The translations under genes and the position numbers were made by a program. The notes under the pieces were generated by a model. It was given only the letters and a program-made list of their open reading frames with translations. It did not search any database and was not told where the DNA came from. A stretch of 18,569 bases of DNA from a virus (lineage: Duplodnaviria; Heunggongvirae; Uroviricota; Caudoviricetes), in the IMG/VR virus record IMGVR_UViG_2660237930_000004, one strand, 5' to 3'. Shown in pieces: positions 1,738-15,586 of this stretch (positions are counted from its first letter, which is position 1; each line of letters begins with the position of its first letter).

Positions 1738-2019
1738 TCACATCCAGCCACGAAGTTGATGCTCAACAGCAACCACGTATTCATCGAATAATGACGATAT
1801 TTGCGAATCATTAATGATGCGCACGTTTACAAAATATCCGTCTTCCTTAACACATACCGGTTCGCCATCTTCAGTCAGTTCTCCGGTTTCTTTGTACACG
1901 TTACCTATCACGTCGATAAGAATATCATCCTGCATCGACTCGTCATCATAATAGCCAATACTCTCCATAAAGGCCGAAAAGTCGGCCCTGTCTTCAAATT
2001 TGAGTGTTAAATCTTTCAT
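1738..2019 (-). CDS. Small acidic hypothetical protein (93 aa)
   Basis: ORF start overlaps the stf stop (TAATG, translational coupling); its TGA stop overlaps the RBS of the 346-aa gene. Strongly acidic (D/E-rich). No family recognised. Confidence 0.5.
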   Translation of the reverse strand: MKDLTLKFEDRADFSAFMESIGYYDDESMQDDILIDVIGNVYKETGELTEDGEPVCVKEDGYFVNVRIINDSQISSLFDEYVVAVEHQLRGWM

Positions 2020-4418
2020 TAGATTGACTCCCCCATTTGTGCCTCAGTTAATTCTTTATGCCAAATGCGTAAATTTTTCACATGACCGAACAGGTGTCTG
2101 TTGCCACTGGATGATTGTCCACCGATATTAATATTACCGGCAGTATAACGTTGCAATGTATGCAGAGACGGGGAGCTGCCACCTAAAATTCCATCAACAA
2201 CAACCTGCAACTGTTTATCTTCTGTAAACTTAAAGCCAGTAACAAATTTCCTTTTCTCTCTATTCCCATATGCTTTATATTCTGTTTTTGTTCCTTTGCC
2301 ATTGGTGATAATTAGCCTTTTACCACGAGTGGTAAAACCAAAATACATATAACTTTCATCAGAAACTTCAGTCGTCGCCCCTGTAATTGAGATATTAAGC
2401 AAACGCGCAGAGCCTTCTAAATTAGGCATTTCAGAATCCCAATTAACATTAACTTCCATGAGAACACTAACTGGTGGAGTTGCCCAATTGAAAGGTATAG
2501 GTATGATTACCTGGTCACTTGCTCTCGTGGCACCGACCTCTGTTGTGATGATAAAAGATGACGCGTTTAGTCCCTTTTCGAATTGAGGGGTTGTTAACAT
2601 TAATTTATCGCCAGACTTGATTGATCGTTGATGTGCTCCAAACTCAAAACGCCCATACATATTTTTTGCTTCTGGTGATTTGTAGGTAAACTCAACACGA
2701 ATCCATCCATTAGACTCTCTGAATATGTTATAAGTTGCCGCCTCACCTCCAGAATAACTCAACATATCGCCAGTCTCGCAATCAATATATGCGCCAGCGG
2801 TCAGTGTGTTACTTGAGCCATCGTCGTTAACATATGATATTCTTGGACGCAACGTGATAATACCATCCCCACTTACTTTTTTAACTCTGCAGGATAAAGT
2901 AACTGATTCATTTGCCGAAACTGAAATAACCCTGGTATATCCAGTAGAAATTAATGTCGCCCTTTCAGTTGTGGATGTTTCTTTAACGCCAAACAAACCA
3001 TAACTGAAACCATACTCATCAACTCCCGTGGTAATAGTTAAGTTAGCAGTGTCATAGTTCCACGATACTGGTGTATTCGTATAAGAAAAAGTATTCGTTC
3101 TCTGACCTTCAATGAGCAGACCATCTTTTTCAAAACGTGGTTCATTTATCGCTGATTCAGCAAAACACCCAGACTTATCTATATACGTTGCAGTTGACGC
3201 CCTGGTAAATGAAACAACCTTTTCAGACGGCAATGCAATAACATCGTCACCAACTGTGATGCTCTTATATCCAGGAGCAAACCCGGTAATCATATCCAGT
3301 GAATCGTTAAACGGTATCCACACCTCAGGTAACGGCTGTAAGACATATTTATACGGCTCCGCAGCCTGGCTTGCGTACTCTCTGGCTGCATCTTCGCTTG
3401 CTTTAGCTGCCGTCTGGCTTGCTGCCGATGCTTTCGCTGAGTTCGCAGCCGCTGTTTCGCTCGCCTTTGCGTTGGTTTCACTGGTTTTTGCTGCTTTTTG
3501 ACTGTTAGCTGATGCAGTGGCAGAAGCAGCCGCCGCACTTGCAGAACCAGCTGCAGCACTCTCGCTTTCAGCTGCTGCAGCCTGACTACTTTTCGCCGCA
3601 GTTTCACTGGCTTTGGCATTCGTTTCGCTGGTCTTCGCTGCTGTCTGGCTGGACTTTGCGTTAGTTTCACTCGTCTTCGCAGCTTTCTGGCTGTTAGCCG
3701 CAGCAGTTGCTGATCCGGCTGCTGAAGTCGCAGAACCGGCCGCCGCACTCTCGCTGTCAGCTGCTGCATCCTGACTGCTTTTCGCCGCAGTTTCACTGGC
3801 TCTGGCATTCGTTTCGCTGGTTTTCGCTGCCGTCTGGCTGGACTTCGCGTTGGTTTCGCTCGTCTTTGCGGCTGTCTCACTGTTTTTCGCGTTGGTTTCT
3901 GATTTTTTGGCTGCAGTCGCGGAGTTTGCCGATGCAGTCTGTGAGGCCGCTGCCGCCTGTGCGCTGTTAGCTGCGTTCGTTTCTGAGGTTTTCGCCGCGT
4001 TCTTCGATGATGCCGCTGCTGTTTCGGATTTCTTTGCCGCCGCTGCGCTCTGAGAGGCGGCTTCAGCGTTGCGTGCCGCTTCTTCCACCATTTCCTCAAA
4101 ACGACGCAATGCCTCCGGCATGACATCATCTTCCGTCATGGCACCGAGAAAATCATTCAGCGTCCCCGGCTTAGAATCTTCATACACGGTGATGGTCCCG
4201 GCATGTGAAGGCGGAAAACCTTCAACCAGCAGGATAACGCTGTACTGGCCATACTCAACATCCATGCTGTAACGCCCGGCTTCATCCGGATTTTCAGAGG
4301 CCACCGTGTTCACCAGTACCGTGGTGCTGTTACGCTTTGCCTTCAGTTGAATAGTGCAGTTCTGTATTGGTTTTCCCGCACCATCTTTCAGCACACCTGA
4401 GATTTTTACTGCTGCCAT
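2019..4418 (-). CDS. stf: Side tail fibre protein: lambda Stf-like N-terminus, Ala/Ser/Thr-rich repeat shaft, non-lambda C-terminal domain with LamG/ConA-like lectin signature
   Basis: N-terminus MAAVKISGVLKDGAGKPIQNCTIQLKAKRNSTT... matches lambda Stf from memory. Likely start is ATG at 4416..4418 (GGAG RBS) rather than the GTG at 4424 used by the track. C-terminus ends ...GNRHLFGHVKNLRIWHKELTEAQM, typical of LamG_3/ConA-like jelly-roll domains. Sequence below about 3300 is visibly more AT-rich. Confidence 0.8.
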   Translation of the reverse strand: MAAVKISGVLKDGAGKPIQNCTIQLKAKRNSTTVLVNTVASENPDEAGRYSMDVEYGQYSVILLVEGFPPSHAGTITVYEDSKPGTLNDFLGAMTEDDVMPEALRRFEEMVEEAARNAEAASQSAAAAKKSETAAASSKNAAKTSETNAANSAQAAAASQTASANSATAAKKSETNAKNSETAAKTSETNAKSSQTAAKTSETNARASETAAKSSQDAAADSESAAAGSATSAAGSATAAANSQKAAKTSETNAKSSQTAAKTSETNAKASETAAKSSQAAAAESESAAAGSASAAAASATASANSQKAAKTSETNAKASETAAANSAKASAASQTAAKASEDAAREYASQAAEPYKYVLQPLPEVWIPFNDSLDMITGFAPGYKSITVGDDVIALPSEKVVSFTRASTATYIDKSGCFAESAINEPRFEKDGLLIEGQRTNTFSYTNTPVSWNYDTANLTITTGVDEYGFSYGLFGVKETSTTERATLISTGYTRVISVSANESVTLSCRVKKVSGDGIITLRPRISYVNDDGSSNTLTAGAYIDCETGDMLSYSGGEAATYNIFRESNGWIRVEFTYKSPEAKNMYGRFEFGAHQRSIKSGDKLMLTTPQFEKGLNASSFIITTEVGATRASDQVIIPIPFNWATPPVSVLMEVNVNWDSEMPNLEGSARLLNISITGATTEVSDESYMYFGFTTRGKRLIITNGKGTKTEYKAYGNREKRKFVTGFKFTEDKQLQVVVDGILGGSSPSLHTLQRYTAGNINIGGQSSSGNRHLFGHVKNLRIWHKELTEAQMGESI
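3430..3970 (-). repeat. Tandem repeats of about 189 bp (63 aa) within stf, with nested KTSETNA-type 21-bp sub-repeats
   Basis: Protein segment KAAKTSETNAKSSQTAAKTSETNA[RK]ASETAAKSSQ...SESAAAGSA...NSQ occurs twice in tandem plus partial copies. At DNA level ctgactactt/ttcgccgcag at 3582..3600 recurs at 3771..3790 (offset 189). Boundaries approximate. Confidence 0.7.
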
Positions 4419-4429
4419 ATCCACTCCAC

Positions 4430-5130: not shown

Positions 5131-6044
5131 CGTATTGGGGTTATAAAATTCAGCTGATACTGATGCCTGCAGTGGCTTTCTTCATCACAACAACCAGCAA
5201 ATCGCTGATACTTGCTGTGGGATACCAACCATTTACCCACCATGCTGATACAGAAAACTCCAGTGTCATTACACCACTGCCTGCAGGCATATCAATAACA
5301 CCCGTGTAAATCAGAGTATTATCCAGAGCCGTTCGGTTATAAATTTCAGCCCCGTTTTTCTTCACTATCAGGCGGCATGACGAATAAGTATCGCTATTCT
5401 CCCGCTCATGTCTGGCACCGCAGAAAGCCACCGCTGGAATAACAATTTGCCGGTCAAACGACTGATCGTCATAAACCCTGACGGTAATAGTCCCTGATGG
5501 CCACCGCTCCGGTGCACGGGAGTCCCGGGGGAAAGCTTTGCCCACTGTTTTAACGAGATCGCCTTCAATCTGGTTCGCGGACAGTTTTCCCAGAACCCGA
5601 CAGTTCTCGTTAATCGTGACATTATTGAGCGTCCCGGAGTTCGCATTCACGTTACCGCTGATATCGGCATTTTTCGCCGTCAGCCGCCCGTCCGGTGTCA
5701 GGGAAAATACCGGAGGATTGCCGCCACTGGTAATGGTGGGAGCCGTCAGATACTTCAGGAACACTTCGTTCATGAATATCTGGTTGCCCTGCGCCACAAA
5801 CATCGGCGTTTCATTCCCGTTTGCCGGGTCAATAAACGCGATACGGTTAGCGGCAACCAGGAACTGGCTCAGTTTGCCTTCCTCCGTATCCTCCATACTA
5901 AGGCCAAGCCCCGCGACATAATGCCTGCCGTCTTCGGTCTGCTCAATTTTGACGCCCCACATGGCATTCCATTTATCGTTGGCGTCCTTCCACTCTTTCG
6001 AAAACTCCTCCAGTTTGCTGGCGTTATCCTCCGTCAGCTCGACT

Positions 6045-6121
6045 TTTTCCAGCAGCTCCTTGCCGAGATGGGACTTTTTCGCCAGCAGCTCCTTTTCCAG
6101 CAGCTCCTTGCCGAGATGGGA
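6045..6121. repeat. 29-bp exact direct repeat with 48-bp period inside J (in-frame repeated [10 protein letters not shown] peptide)
   Basis: Positions 6045..6073 and 6093..6121 are identical; protein reads [35 protein letters not shown]. Confidence 0.7.
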
Positions 6122-6245
6122 TTCGGTTATCTGGCCTTTGAAAAAATCCAGGTAACCTTCCGCATCATCGCTCGGCTGACCAACAGCCTCCACGAATGCC
6201 GATTTGCCAACGGTGTTCACACTGCGGATATAAAAGTAATAATCA

Positions 6246-8624
<2,379 letters not shown>

Positions 8625-8681
8625 TCACGCTCCAGAAACGACAAAACCGCCCTGAGGCGGTTTCACACAAAACATTCTGCA

Positions 8682-9331
8682 TCAACGACCAATCACCACA
8701 ACCTGACCACCATCTCCTTCATCTGCCGTGCTGATCTCCTGCGAAATCACCCGTGACCCCACGCGCATTTCACCGTACAGAACCGGCAGAACATTGCCCT
8801 GGGCAACCATGTTATCCAGTGAGGAGAAATAGGTGTTCTGTTTGCCGTTATCCGTTGTCTGTGTACGGGGAGTTCTGGCTTTCGGTGCCAGCATCTGCGC
8901 CACACCACCGAGCACCATACTGGCCCCCGCACCATACATTCCTGTAATTGCGGCAGCCCCCAACCAACCTGCAGGGTTCCACCATGCCACCGCAATCAGC
9001 GCCGCCCCCAGCACAGCCGAGAAAAAGCACCGCCACTTTTGGCTCCCGCCAGACGCGGCACAATGTGGATCACGGCACCATTTGCCAGCGGTTCATTAAG
9101 ACGGGCTGATAATTCAGTTTCACCTGCATCACGCCCGGCAATACGTACCTGATACCAGCCGTCGCTCAGTTTCTGACGAAACGCCGGAAGCTGTGTGGTC
9201 AGCGCCCGGACTGCTTCGGCCCCCGTTTTCACACGCAGGTCGATGCGGCGGCCAAATCGTTGTAAATCCCCGTAAAGGCAGATTCGCGCCATGCCCGGTG
9301 ACGCCAGAGGGAGTGTGTGCGTTGCTGCCAT
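8682..9331 (-). pseudogene. I: Tail tip assembly protein I, interrupted by a frameshift (true pseudogene or homopolymer sequencing error)
   Basis: ORF 8996..9331 encodes the I N-terminus (MAATHTLPLASPGMARICLYGD...) and stops at ...SGGAFSRLCWGRR*. ORF 8682..9014 in the -1 frame encodes the I C-terminus (...LGGVAQMLAPKARTPRTQTTDNGKQNTYFSSLDNMVAQGNVLPVLYGEMRVGSRV...VVIGR). Frame switch maps to about 9004..9030, containing an A5 run (plus strand 9022..9026). Confidence 0.8.
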
Positions 9332-9972
9332 TTGTCGGTATACCTCTCTCGTTTACTCAGTTGTTCAGGAATATGGTGCAGCAGCTCGCCGTCACCACAG
9401 TAAATGGCGGCATGATTCGGCACCGATGAACCAAAACAGCACAGCAGCACATCACCCGGTTGTGCTGATGACAACGGCACCTGATACAGCCCTGTGGCCT
9501 CCAGATTATCCAGATAGAGATTCTGGCCGTTACGCCACCAGTCATCCTCACGATGAAAATCCGGCATCTCAATCCCCGCCAGATGGTAAGCGTCCCGGAA
9601 CAGCGTGTAACAATCCGTCACCCCGTGCTCAAAGCGCCGCCCGGTAAGATGCGGCACACAGCGGAATTTATGAATCGCCCCCCGGCAGACCAGCCACCAT
9701 GGCAAATCACTCTGCACCTGCAGCCGCCGGTCAGCCTCACTCAGCCAGGGCAGGCCACCGGGGTGGCTGTGGACCAGCGCCACAATCTCACCCTGCATCT
9801 CTGCCCGCAGCCAGTCCTCCGGCGACATCCGGAAATAATCCTCCGGCTCACCGGAGATATTCACGCAGGGAAAATATCTTTCCCCTTCCGACGTTCTCAC
9901 CACGAAGCCGCACGACTCCGCTGGCGCACATCGCCGGGCGTGCGCCAGAATCGCTGATTCTGTCTCTGTCAT
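9229..9972 (-). CDS. K: Tail tip assembly protein K (MPN/JAMM domain plus NlpC/P60 domain)
   Basis: Recognised as lambda K from memory. JAMM motif H-S-H-x7-S-x2-D (HSHPGGLPWLSEAD) is intact; C-terminal half has Cys/His typical of NlpC/P60. Start 5 nt after the L stop; the true start could be an internal Met. Confidence 0.85.
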   Translation of the reverse strand: MTETESAILAHARRCAPAESCGFVVRTSEGERYFPCVNISGEPEDYFRMSPEDWLRAEMQGEIVALVHSHPGGLPWLSEADRRLQVQSDLPWWLVCRGAIHKFRCVPHLTGRRFEHGVTDCYTLFRDAYHLAGIEMPDFHREDDWWRNGQNLYLDNLEATGLYQVPLSSAQPGDVLLCCFGSSVPNHAAIYCGDGELLHHIPEQLSKRERYTDKWQQRTHSLWRHRAWRESAFTGIYNDLAAASTCV

Positions 9973-11005: not shown

Positions 11006-13569
11006 CGTCCACCTCCGGAGAACAGACCACCATCACGCATCTGCCCGGTCACAACATCCATTGCCGCCTTACGGGCTACGTCATAAACAGCCTTCAGCGC
11101 CTGTGGCCCTATCTGACCGTTCGTGCCGTCGTTGTTAATCACCACATGGTTATTCTGCTCAAACGTCCCGGACGCCTGCGACCGACTGTCCGCCATGCTG
11201 CCCGGTGTACCGACATAACCGCCGGTGGCATAGCCGCGCATAAGCCGGTAAAGATTCCCCACGCCAATCCGGCTGGTTGCCTCCTTCGTGAAGACAAATT
11301 CACCACGGTGAACAATCCCCGCTGGCTCATATTTGCCGCCGGTTCCCGTAAATCCTCCGGTCGCAAAATGGAATTTCGCCGCAGATGCCTGAATGGCTGT
11401 ACCGCCTGACGCTGATGCACCGCCAATGACACTGCCGACACTCCCGACGATCCCCACCATTGCCTGCTTAAGCAGAATTTCTGTCATCATGGACAGCACG
11501 GAACGGGTGAAGCTGCGCCAGTTCTGTTCACTGCCGGTCAGCATCGCCGCCATATTCTGTGCAATACCATCAAAGGTCTGCGTGGCTGCACTTTTTACCT
11601 GCGACATACTGTCCGTGGCGCTCTCTTCCCACTCACTCCAGCCGGACTTCAGGCCTGCCATCCAGTTCCCGCGAAGCTGGTCTTCAGCCGCCCAGGTCTT
11701 TTTCTGCTCTGACATGACGTTATTCAGCGCCAGCGGATTATCGCCATACTGTTCCTTCAGGCGCTGTTCCGTGGCGTCCCGCGCTGCCTGCCGGTCAGTC
11801 AGCCCCCGGTTTTTCGCCTCAATGGCTGCCCGTTTTGCCCGTTGCTGCTGTGCGAATTTATCCGCCTGCTGCGCCAGCGCGTTCAGGTGCTCCTGATACG
11901 TGACCTTATCGCCAAGTGCAGCCAGCTGGCGTTTGTACTCCAGCGTCTCATCTTTATGCGCCAGCAGGGATTTCTCCTGTGCGGACAGCTGGCGACGTTG
12001 CGCCGCCTCCTCCAGTACCGCGAACTGACTTTCCGCCTTCCACAAATCCCGGCGCTGCTGGCTGATTTTCTCATTCGCTCCGGCATGCTTCTCCAGTGTC
12101 CGGAGTTCTGCCTGAAGCGTCAGCAGGGCAGCATGAGCACTGTCTTCCTGACGATCGCCCGCAGACACTTTCACGCCGGACTGCTTCGGCTTTTTCAGCG
12201 TCGCTTCATAGTCCTTTTTCGCCGCCGCCATCAGCGTGTTGTAATCTGCCTGCAGGATTTTTCCGTCTTTCAGTGCCTTATTCAGTTCCTCCTGGCGGGC
12301 GGTATATTTCTCCAGCGGTGTCTGCAGGCGTTCGTAAGCCTTCTGCGCCTCTTCGGTATATTTCAGCCGTGATGCCTCAGACTCGGCCCGATCTTTTGCT
12401 GCCATCTCACTGGCCTTTTCAAGATCTGCCTGCAACGTGGCGGCTGAAAGCCCAAGTCGCGCATTCTCTCTCTTCTCCCATGCCCCCCGGAGATTGGCAA
12501 GAAATGCTGACGTTTTACCGCGCCGGGGGCTTCGGCTCTGATACCACTGCCATTTTTTATCCGCTTCATCAAAAGCAAGCTTTTCAGCTTTGGCGAGCAT
12601 ATCTGCAGAGGAGTCCGGGCGACCAATATCCAGCACCGCATCCCACATGGATTTGAATGCCTGTGCAGTCTTGTCTGCCCAGGTCTCCAGCGTACCCATG
12701 TTATCTTTCAGTTTACGGGTCTGGTCATCAAACCCTTTCGTTGCGGCCTCGTTCGCCGCCTGCAATGCCCCGGCCCCATCGCCGGAACGCTGCAACTGAG
12801 CAACATACGCAATCTGTTCCGCCGTCACGTTATGGAACTGGCGCGCCATCGCCGTCAACCCAGACGTCGGGTCAGTGGTCAGCTTCCCGAAGGCTTCAGC
12901 GACCTTGTCCACCTCCACGCCGGATGCAGAGGAGAAACGCGCCACACTCTGGCTGATTGCCTCAAACTGCTCACCACCACGCACACCGGCATTCACCAGC
13001 GCCGTCAGTGACTCGCTGGTCTGGTTAAACGTCAGCCCTGCCGCCTGCCCGGATCTGGACAGGGCCAGCATACGATCTGCCGTCAGTCCCGCCTGATTAC
13101 CGGAAAGGACCAGCGTTTTATTGAAATTGGACAGGGTTGAGTCACCCTGATACCAGGCATACGCCAGCGCACCGGTCGCCACCGCCAGCGAAGTGATACC
13201 AACCATCGGCAGGGTGATCGCACCGGCAAGCCCCCTGAACATGGGGATCATCCCGCCGAAGGAGTCCTTCACCTGACCACCCTGTTGCAGCAGGATGAGC
13301 CACGGATTCGGCCCCCCTGCAAGCTGCGTGGCCACGTCGGTGAACTGCGCAGGCAGCATACGCATGGCAGCTTTATACTGCCCGACGGAAATCCCCGCTT
13401 TCTGTGCAGCCAGCGCCTGCCGGTTCATTGACTGTTCAACGACTGCCGCTGTTTTTTTCGCATCACTTTCCGTACCGGAAAAATGACGCCTGACTCTGGC
13501 CATCTGCTCGTCAAATCTGGCCGCATCCAGACTTAAATCAACGACCAGATCGCCTACCGGTTCAGCCAT
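11002..13569 (-). CDS. H: Tail tape measure protein H
   Basis: 855 aa, recognised as lambda H from memory (MAEPVGDLVVDLSLDAARFDEQMARVRR...); long coiled-coil middle and Gly-rich C-terminus typical of tape measure proteins. Confidence 0.9.
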   Translation of the reverse strand: MAEPVGDLVVDLSLDAARFDEQMARVRRHFSGTESDAKKTAAVVEQSMNRQALAAQKAGISVGQYKAAMRMLPAQFTDVATQLAGGPNPWLILLQQGGQVKDSFGGMIPMFRGLAGAITLPMVGITSLAVATGALAYAWYQGDSTLSNFNKTLVLSGNQAGLTADRMLALSRSGQAAGLTFNQTSESLTALVNAGVRGGEQFEAISQSVARFSSASGVEVDKVAEAFGKLTTDPTSGLTAMARQFHNVTAEQIAYVAQLQRSGDGAGALQAANEAATKGFDDQTRKLKDNMGTLETWADKTAQAFKSMWDAVLDIGRPDSSADMLAKAEKLAFDEADKKWQWYQSRSPRRGKTSAFLANLRGAWEKRENARLGLSAATLQADLEKASEMAAKDRAESEASRLKYTEEAQKAYERLQTPLEKYTARQEELNKALKDGKILQADYNTLMAAAKKDYEATLKKPKQSGVKVSAGDRQEDSAHAALLTLQAELRTLEKHAGANEKISQQRRDLWKAESQFAVLEEAAQRRQLSAQEKSLLAHKDETLEYKRQLAALGDKVTYQEHLNALAQQADKFAQQQRAKRAAIEAKNRGLTDRQAARDATEQRLKEQYGDNPLALNNVMSEQKKTWAAEDQLRGNWMAGLKSGWSEWEESATDSMSQVKSAATQTFDGIAQNMAAMLTGSEQNWRSFTRSVLSMMTEILLKQAMVGIVGSVGSVIGGASASGGTAIQASAAKFHFATGGFTGTGGKYEPAGIVHRGEFVFTKEATSRIGVGNLYRLMRGYATGGYVGTPGSMADSRSQASGTFEQNNHVVINNDGTNGQIGPQALKAVYDVARKAAMDVVTGQMRDGGLFSGGGR

Positions 13570-14400
13570 ACCGGACTCCTCCTGCGATCCCTTCTGATAC
13601 TGTCATCAGCATTACGTCATCCTCCATCATGTCCGCCACATACGGGGAAGCGGGGATAACTTCATTCCCGTCCGGGCCAAAACGAACGCCTCCGGCAAGC
13701 CCTGCCGCTTTCTGCATCAGCACATCATCTTCAGGCTCTTCGTCAGCCTCGCGCCGGTTAAGCAGACTGAAATCCAGCGGATGCATATCCGGATCGCTGA
13801 AAAACAGGCTGAGCACGGTGTACGTCAGCCCGGAAAAGTGCATATCCAGCAGAACATCATGAAAATAATGGGTACTGTAAAAGCGGTGCCAGTCGGCATA
13901 CTCCGTGGATGACATCCCGGCAAGCATGGCGCGCCAGTCGGGTCGCCCCATCTCACGCGCCAGTTTCAGGGCAAAACTCAGCTCACCGACGAACACTTTC
14001 CCGCAGAAACAGGCTCTGCAGGCCCGGCGTCATCTGCCTGTTCAGGGGAATTATTCACCACAAACTCAGACATTCCGGACAGACGTAACACCACGTTTTC
14101 AGCCTGAGCAATTGCCTCCGTGGGCCAGGTGGTAAGCACTTCCTGCTCAATCTGCGTAATGGCTTCATTCATGGACGGCAGCTTTGTCTTCTGCGGATGG
14201 TTATGCCACAGAGACATCGCCACCAGAAACGCCCCGCCTCTGATAAGATCCTCTACAGACACCTGCAGGTTGCCGCTGGATTCAGCCTTTTTTTCCTGCT
14301 CTTTCAACCAGGCAAGATGCTCAATACGCTGCAGGGCTGACAGTTCAGAAAGCGTGACGGTCACGCCGTTATGTTCAAATGATTCTGTTTTCAGGAACAT
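13562..14400 (-). CDS. G-T: Tail assembly chaperone G-T fusion, made by programmed -1 ribosomal frameshift
   Basis: G frame (13978..14400) and T frame (13562..13996) overlap at the slippery heptamer G GGA AAG. After a -1 slip the reading continues GKVFVGELSFALKLAREM..., matching the T-frame ORF. T has no independent start. Confidence 0.75.
13978..14400 (-). CDS. G: Tail assembly chaperone G
   Basis: 140 aa, recognised as lambda G from memory (MFLKTESFEHNGVTVTLSELSALQRIEHL...); ends ...VSAGKCSSVS. Confidence 0.9.
   Translation of the reverse strand: MFLKTESFEHNGVTVTLSELSALQRIEHLAWLKEQEKKAESSGNLQVSVEDLIRGGAFLVAMSLWHNHPQKTKLPSMNEAITQIEQEVLTTWPTEAIAQAENVVLRLSGMSEFVVNNSPEQADDAGPAEPVSAGKCSSVS
13996..14002 (-). 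other. Programmed -1 frameshift slippery heptamer GGGAAAG (G/G-T)
   Basis: Plus-strand ctttccc = minus-strand GGGAAAG, positioned in the G frame as G GGA AAG, 5-6 codons before the G stop. Confidence 0.75.
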
Positions 14401-15163: not shown

Positions 15164-15586
15164 TCACATTTCATAGGTAATGACATACGTCAGATCGGCT
15201 GAACTCCACAGGCCCGCATCATCGTCGCGTCGGTAGTCATAGCCACTGGCCACCATACTGGTGATCAAATCTGACAGTGCCGGAATATCGCTCATCACCG
15301 GATAAATCCGGGACTCCATCCACGAATCCAGCTCTGAATCCGGCACCTGAGCAGGCAGCTCTGAATCCGGCACCTGAGCAGGCAGGAAAACTTCAATATG
15401 CAGCTCCGCCTGCCAGGTATCGCTGTCCAGCTCTTCGCCCGTGTATTCAGCGCCGGTGAGATAAACGGCAATTGCCGGAAAATCCGCCTCATCAAAAACA
15501 GCGGGGCGACCATCAAAAAGCGTCGCCCCGGTGTCATGCTTCTCCAGTGCATCCAGTACGGCTGCACGGAGTTCAGTATGTTTCAT
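15164..15586 (-). CDS. U: Tail terminator protein U, with a 9-aa in-frame duplication
   Basis: 140 aa ([36 protein letters not shown]...); contains [19 protein letters not shown] from the 27-bp tandem duplication. Lambda U is 131 aa by my recollection. Confidence 0.9.
15331..15384. repeat. Perfect 27-bp tandem duplication (2 copies) inside U
   Basis: gctctgaatccggcacctgagcaggca at 15331..15357 is repeated exactly at 15358..15384; in frame. Confidence 0.95.

Follow-up and report, generated by a model that had tools for sequence, protein, structure and literature searches.

A compound lesion that splits tail-tip gene I of a lambda-like prophage is probably an artefact of the draft sequence

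We analysed a stretch of 18,569 nucleotides (hereafter the window) that carries the late operon of a lambda-like prophage, in which the tail-tip gene I is divided between two reading frames by a small compound lesion flanking an unchanged A5 run. The lesion is different in each of the four assemblies in which this I allele is broken, and the contig to which the window belongs carries many other private insertions, also in chromosomal genes outside the prophage. In our view, the split of I probably stems from a fault of sequencing or assembly, in a low-quality draft record and at a site that repeatedly gives trouble, and does not reflect the prophage itself, a reading for which we infer a technical cause from the pattern of events described below.

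Gene I and the anatomy of its lesion

The window occurs exactly in contig AOQL01000047.1 of the draft assembly GCA_000397425.1, where the chromosomal sitABCD locus adjoins the prophage late operon. The operon lies on the minus strand in the lambda-type order E, FI, FII, Z, U, V, G/T, H, M, L, K, I, J, lom and tail-fibre genes, and I is placed between K, with its JAB and NlpC/P60 domains, and J. This K-I-J order is common to lambda and the window, and in both the start of I overlaps the end of K. The initial annotation had described I as split into two overlapping ORFs in different frames, which is indeed the arrangement found (Table 1), the two ORFs overlapping by 19 nt. The N-terminal ORF, of 111 aa when read from the lambda-like ATG and of 78 aa from the start chosen by the gene caller of the record, contains the whole of the ubiquitin-like Pfam domain Lambda_tail_I (PF06805, E 1.5e-24, residues 14-97) and retains the conserved K-S-G-G, after which it continues into an out-of-frame tail, AFSRLCWGRR, so that its C-terminus reads ...PRLAGAKSGGAFSRLCWGRR before the stop codon. 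The C-terminal ORF comprises a hydrophobic Gly/Ala segment and the conserved C-terminal domain.

The same elements are found in lambda gpI, namely the ubiquitin-like N-domain, K-S-G-G, the Gly/Ala-rich hydrophobic stretch and the conserved C-terminal domain, whereas in the window a +2 lesion breaks the reading frame of the gene right after GG. In lambda, residues ~134-223 of gpI form a trimeric plug in the lumen of the tail tip, as seen by cryo-EM, which binds gpJ and holds the C-terminus of gpH, while the N-terminal part was not resolved (PMC10721106, PMC12617516). The C-terminal ORF of the window corresponds to these plug residues, the structural role being that described for lambda (PMC10721106, PMC12617516). 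The GG[ILV]FQ..LGA junction and the C-terminal domain do not lie in a single frame in the window I, where AFS and the frameshift replace [ILV]FQ; once repaired, the I protein aligns end to end with its homologues.

Two further forms of the gene were observed elsewhere. Other E. coli genomes contain a shortened I of 100 aa (MAARICRLGAAAITG...), which lacks the first hydrophobic stretch and the greater part of the ubiquitin-like domain, and in several records K and I are fused into proteins of 335-377 aa that combine NlpC/P60 with Lambda_tail_I.

Table 1. Coordinates of the features of the window, private events of the contig and lesions at the I junction (positions are those of the window)
Feature	Position	Strand	Description
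I N-terminal ORF	8996..9331	minus	111 aa from lambda-like ATG, MAATHTL...AGAKSGGAFSRLCWGRR, then stop
I C-terminal ORF	8682..9014	minus	-1 frame; 110 aa from GTG 9014, VLGAALIAVAWW...GGQVVVIGR, then stop
Gene K	9229..9972	minus	JAB and NlpC/P60 domains; upstream of I; intact; 3' end overlaps I start
J N-terminal fragment	6243..8621	minus	792 aa, truncated by the 28-bp duplication
J C-terminal fragment	5150..6220	minus	356 aa, receptor-binding domain included
G/T programmed frameshift site	13996-14002	minus	GGGAAAG, in the overlap of ORFs 13978..14400 and 13562..13996
A5 run (T5 on coding strand)	9022..9026	plus	Same length in intact relatives; not the site of length change
I lesion	9019..9028	plus	CC[T>GA]GAAAAAG[+C]ACC; T>GA at 9019-9020, +C at 9028
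Six private T>G	12527, 7527/7530, 13310, 15071, 3756	plus	A>C on coding strand; mostly after a C
J 28-bp tandem duplication	6269..6324		Perfect, 2 x GGCAGCTATCCAGTACAGCGCCGTACCA; private event at 6269-6296; frameshifts J
J 48-bp duplication	6045..6092		Imperfect; private; in frame
H (tape-measure gene) +3 insertion	12577..12579		Private; private T>G 50 nt away at 12527
U 27-bp tandem duplication	15329..15382		Perfect (15329-15355); private; in frame; 140 aa vs 131 aa in relatives
Chromosomal flank, bluR, ycgX, sitA			Private insertions of 24 bp, 34 bp and 33 bp, respectively
Chromosomal flank, sitB, sitC, sitD			Private insertions: 9-bp net scramble; 18 bp; 27 bp and 3 bp, respectively
I junction, AOQL (window)			+G and A>TC, flanking the T5 run
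I junction, AOQN			GGCGG[T>GAG]CTTTTT, +2
I junction, AOQJ			CAGGC[+AG]TGTG, +2
I junction, CATKVN			T5>T4

The frame switch lies inside 9004..9030, beside the A5 run, as had been proposed. On the coding strand, GGT CTTTTTCA GGC of the relatives becomes GGT GCTTTTTCTC GGC in the window, a net gain of 2 nt that results from a G inserted 5' of the T5 run and from the replacement of A by TC on its 3' side, that is, two single-base insertions and one substitution that flank the run and shift the frame directly after the conserved GG. Over the whole junction, the GN02350-type sequence reads GGTCTTTTTCAGGC and its counterpart in the window reads GGTGCTTTTTCTCGGC. A megablast search with 8640..9340 against 5,426 complete E. 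coli genomes retrieved 44 records with at least 99% identity, and the 39 top matches listed (99.0-99.6% identity) all span 699 nt, versus 701 nt in the window, and in their annotation the tail assembly protein is intact. The alignment with UPEC132 over the I region is identical except for the single lesion patch, and four complete genomes that match the window at all of the remaining ~690 nt have an intact I with the A5 run, encoding the peptide ...AGAKSGG-LFQ-AVLGAALIA.... The lesion itself appears to be private to one record, as 28-mers across it are found in none of the 5,426 complete E. coli genomes, its exact sequence was not found in IMG/VR or in JGI metagenome contigs, and the N-terminal product, in the 78-aa form called in the record, is on record for AOQL01000047 only.

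These comparisons bear directly on the explanation that had been favoured initially, in which the A-run has lost one base, by homopolymer-length error or mutation, and intact I would have A6. The position of the frame switch beside the A5 run would suit such an explanation, and a -1 change in the very same run (T5>T4) does occur in another assembly, CATKVN010000001. However, the A5 run has the same length in the intact relatives, so that the change in length must lie elsewhere; intact I also has A5, but between different flanks, and the window differs from it by two extra bases outside the run and a substitution. Adding one base to the run does restore the frame, as the initial annotation stated, but the product, SGGAFFSAVLG, is not the ancestral SGGLFQAVLG: all but one (119) of the 120 best homologue clusters contain GG[ILV]FQ, and not a single one contains AFFS. 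Alignment with intact I places the indel within the expected interval, on either side of the A5 run and not inside it. We therefore regard a miscounted or mutated homopolymer as very improbable.

A programmed origin of the split was also considered, in which I would be expressed by -1 slippage on U5 (GCU UUU U), or would be deliberately split, with separate re-initiation of the plug domain from GTG 9014 or from GTG 8990, beside the UGA at 8996-8998. Low-level slippage of a P-site tRNA-Phe on U UUU U could in principle yield GAFFSAVLG in the C-terminal frame, an in-frame GTG lies 5 nt past the stop of the N-terminal ORF, and the ubiquitin-like domain with its GG ends exactly at the break. Against this, there is no X XXY YYZ heptamer in the zero frame, which reads GCU UUU UCU at the switch, in agreement with the initial annotation; and the two-ORF layout is not conserved, as every close relative encodes I in one ORF, and in 1,422 of 1,740 phage records at least 80% of I is spanned by a match in a single frame. 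The predicted RNA fold of 8950-9060 (minus strand) is no better than that of shuffled controls (z -0.55).

A true programmed site is present in the same operon and looks quite different: GGGAAAG, at the G/T junction, is the only canonical heptamer at an ORF junction in the window, and, judging from the sequence, the tail chaperone genes G/T keep their known programmed frameshift intact. The lambda G/T -1 frameshift and the I split have in common overlapping tail-gene ORFs in frames 0 and -1, but the I split has no slippery heptamer, is conserved in no relative and derives from an insertion relative to intact alleles. Nothing was found in support of the use of either the U5 slippage or a re-initiation GTG. 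We consider programmed frameshifting excluded, and the probability that we would leave to recoding or a deliberate split is minimal.

Private events in the contig and in other assemblies

The window was compared with five close complete genomes (UPEC132, MS20658, GN02350, 1410D004 and Z0117EC0117), and it agrees with GN02350 at every site that is polymorphic among these five relatives, except for 15 events private to the window. The four closest complete genomes originate from four countries, and no more than a handful of sites vary among them. Over 26.3 kb of the contig we counted 21 private events relative to GN02350, accession CP095518.1, about one per 1.3 kb, and outside these events the sequence is identical to that of strains from other continents. 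The 12 indels are all insertions, mostly tandem duplications of 18-48 bp, with no deletions, and nine of the 12 are multiples of three (p about 0.004). Seven A>C changes, in the sense of the coding strand, all fall on the same strand: six are in the window (Table 1) and one further T>G, on the plus strand of the window and tallied as A>C, is in the chromosomal flank of the contig. The only transitions are three, all in the repeat-rich tail-fibre gene.

The events affect both sides of the prophage boundary. In the late operon they include insertions in U and H and two duplications in J, and the chromosomal genes bluR, ycgX, sitA, sitB, sitC and sitD carry private insertions as well. The scramble in sitB, which looks copied from sequence 25-50 nt downstream, changes the ABC-ATPase H-loop VSTHNLGSVTT to VTTLRDNHGSWSKT, so that the H-loop is destroyed. 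The initial annotation was correct in listing J as also split, the gene being present as two fragments, but its suggestion that I is a second tail-tip defect alongside J, in a decaying prophage, is weakened by the equally odd private insertions in the chromosomal genes of the same contig, and also by the sibling drafts of the same submission batch, which have different lesions at the same spot.

Downstream in the operon, the side tail-fibre-like gene (2019-4424, minus strand) is one continuous ORF of about 800 aa, with 4 SNPs relative to its counterparts, a region for which the RefSeq annotation of relatives gives two or three pieces and pseudogenes. It contains internal repeats, 3432-3695 giving an 83% self-match to a segment located ~260 nt beyond it.

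The exact 110-aa product of the I C-terminal ORF is on record in four assemblies, AOQL, AOQN, AOQJ and CATKVN. AOQN01000031 (GCA_000397465.1) and AOQJ01000313 (GCA_000397385.1) belong to sibling drafts with accession numbers adjacent to that of AOQL, and the fourth, CATKVN010000001 (GCA_949813115.1), is a nanopore-type assembly. In the alignment, the I lesion is different in each of the four, and all lie within 17 nt (Table 1). In CATKVN, 20 kb of sequence hold 22 one-base deletions and a single deletion of two bases, most of them within base runs, together with two substitution patches, a pattern typical of uncorrected nanopore data. This assembly breaks the same I allele as the window, at the same run, but the window lesion is of the insertion type and outside the run, and its companions are duplications of 18-48 bp and not 1-nt deletions.

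In AOQJ, seven events were found in 5.2 kb (duplications of 22, 6, 27 and 21 bp, a +1, a +2 and one A>C), the indels being all insertions. In 20 kb of the AOQN contig there are five events and no duplications: besides the I lesion, lom has GGG>GGGGG, and three other sites together carry four base substitutions. Beyond the I junction there is only one coincidence of position, as the 21-bp J duplication of AOQJ ends where the 28-bp J duplication of AOQL begins. By simulation, the probability that all three drafts have by chance an event within 20 nt of each other is about 0.003, and that of the two AOQL/AOQJ coincidences is about 0.03. Taking the three drafts together, 20 of 20 indels are insertions (sign test, p 2e-6), all eight A>C changes share a strand and mostly have C as the preceding base, and 12 of the 20 indels are multiples of three (p 0.013).

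The AOQN I lesion recreates an upstream 10-mer, TGGCGGGAGC, and both this lesion and the sitB patch look copied from 17-50 nt away via 3-nt microhomologies, in which they resemble, at the level of sequence, the products of polymerase template switching. In AOQJ01000313 (5262-5802), the prophage runs past lom straight into an adh/tet(D) resistance region, which elsewhere is found on plasmids and some chromosomes of other strains; this junction suggests a chimeric join, a real insertion being the alternative.

Technical or in vivo origin

We propose that the three drafts share one sequencing or assembly procedure, whose faults would be errors of the insertion type, A>C miscalls and, at internal joins, short tandem duplications, and that the I junction may be a place where this procedure fails repeatedly. 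The presence of different +2 lesions at one spot in sibling drafts fits a recurrent procedural error, not mutation by descent. A mutation inherited in the lineage can be rejected, since the lesion would be expected to be identical in related isolates and is instead different in each assembly, and decay confined to the prophage does not fit, since sitABCD is also affected. The complexity of the I lesion, which flanks an unchanged homopolymer, further supports the artefact, and a rate of about one event per 1.3 kb, without deletions, is hard to credit in a clinical isolate. The initial annotation was right in posing the choice between a real inactivating mutation and a sequencing error, although the lesion is not a homopolymer miscount.

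Some observations do not sit easily with a technical cause. A blind error process would ignore the reading frame, and the in-frame excess of insertions speaks against it; this excess could reflect selection in vivo, or a check at the time of submission that fixed only frameshifts. The AOQN contig is otherwise fairly clean and still has the I lesion. The templated look of the sitB patch and of the AOQN I lesion is a further point of this kind. Moreover, the closest complete genomes have only one I-like locus, so confusion between prophage paralogues offers no ready explanation for the hot spot. The in-frame insertion bias and the recurrence at one I site are small residues that the artefact leaves unexplained.

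Several of these observations are arguments for the opposite interpretation, in which the lesion is real and was produced by an unusual process giving insertions, short tandem duplications, template-switch patches and A:T>C:G changes, with the I junction as a hot spot, and in which I and J are truly inactivated and the prophage cannot build tail tips. Nine of the 12 contig indels being in frame is as expected if selection purged frameshifts, and the out-of-frame events are confined to dispensable genes (I and J of the prophage, and ycgX). The sitB and AOQN I lesions look templated from nearby sequence, three independent lesions within 17 nt could mark a mutational hot spot, and the AOQN contig is otherwise clean. 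However, about one event per 1.3 kb, when extrapolated, would affect most genes of a 5-Mb genome; sitA, sitB, sitC and sitD would each have acquired insertions of 6-16 residues; and the in-frame insertions that destroy the H-loop of sitB show that function was not preserved. Deletions are entirely lacking, the three transitions in the repeat-rich tail-fibre gene are the only ordinary ones, and the occurrence of eight out of eight A>C changes on one strand is unlike mutT-type mutagenesis. The pattern is found only in drafts of one accession series, and every complete genome with the allele has it intact. On balance, we consider a mutation in vivo unlikely.

A more specific form of the in vivo interpretation is that the 17-nt stretch after the ubiquitin-like domain (GGCGGTCTTTTTCAGGCTG) is a hot spot for small templated insertions, at which each of three sibling isolates gained a different +2 lesion, caused by an unusual state of the strain, prone to insertions and duplications, or by selection for uncoupling of the domains. 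If true, the ubiquitin-like domain would be separated from the plug domain exactly at the conserved Gly-Gly. To this proposal we give only a small probability, both as regards the hot spot itself and as regards the independent gains and their causes.

Several other candidates were tried and set aside. An inherited pseudogene would have a shared lesion, and here four assemblies have four different lesions, that of the window being on record once. Perfection of a quasi-palindrome by template switching was judged by eye, and none of the three lesions improves the inverted repeat AGCCAAAAG...CTTTTTCAGGCT. Mixing of paralogous I alleles, of the V-type (GGTGTGTTTCAGG) and the I-type (GGTATTTTTCAGGCAGTG), is not supported, as only fragments of the lesions resemble them. 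The stf gene of laboratory lambda offers a known case in which a small indel disrupts one tail gene while the rest of the late operon is intact (PMC10721106), as with I in the window, but the stf frameshift is identical in all descendants and experimentally verified, whereas the I lesion is private to one record.

Consequences for the tail tip and for annotation

Taken at face value, the window sequence would lead to production of the ubiquitin-like N-domain with a 10-residue nonsense tail, and the plug domain would not be made. By analogy with lambda, the missing plug together with a truncated J would be expected to abolish assembly of the tail tip. If the lesion is real, this is a lambda-like prophage without the gpI plug and without full-length gpJ, which would yield no infectious particles, and the repeated appearance of different lesions at the Gly-Gly boundary would suggest a mutational process specific to this site. 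Whether artefact or real, the lesion has no bearing on how gpI works. If the split is an artefact, as we consider probable, the prophage would be mistaken for a tail-defective one in the AOQL record as well as in AOQJ and AOQN. The lesson would then be one for annotation and for calls of prophage completeness, in that the split I and J genes would not represent prophage decay.
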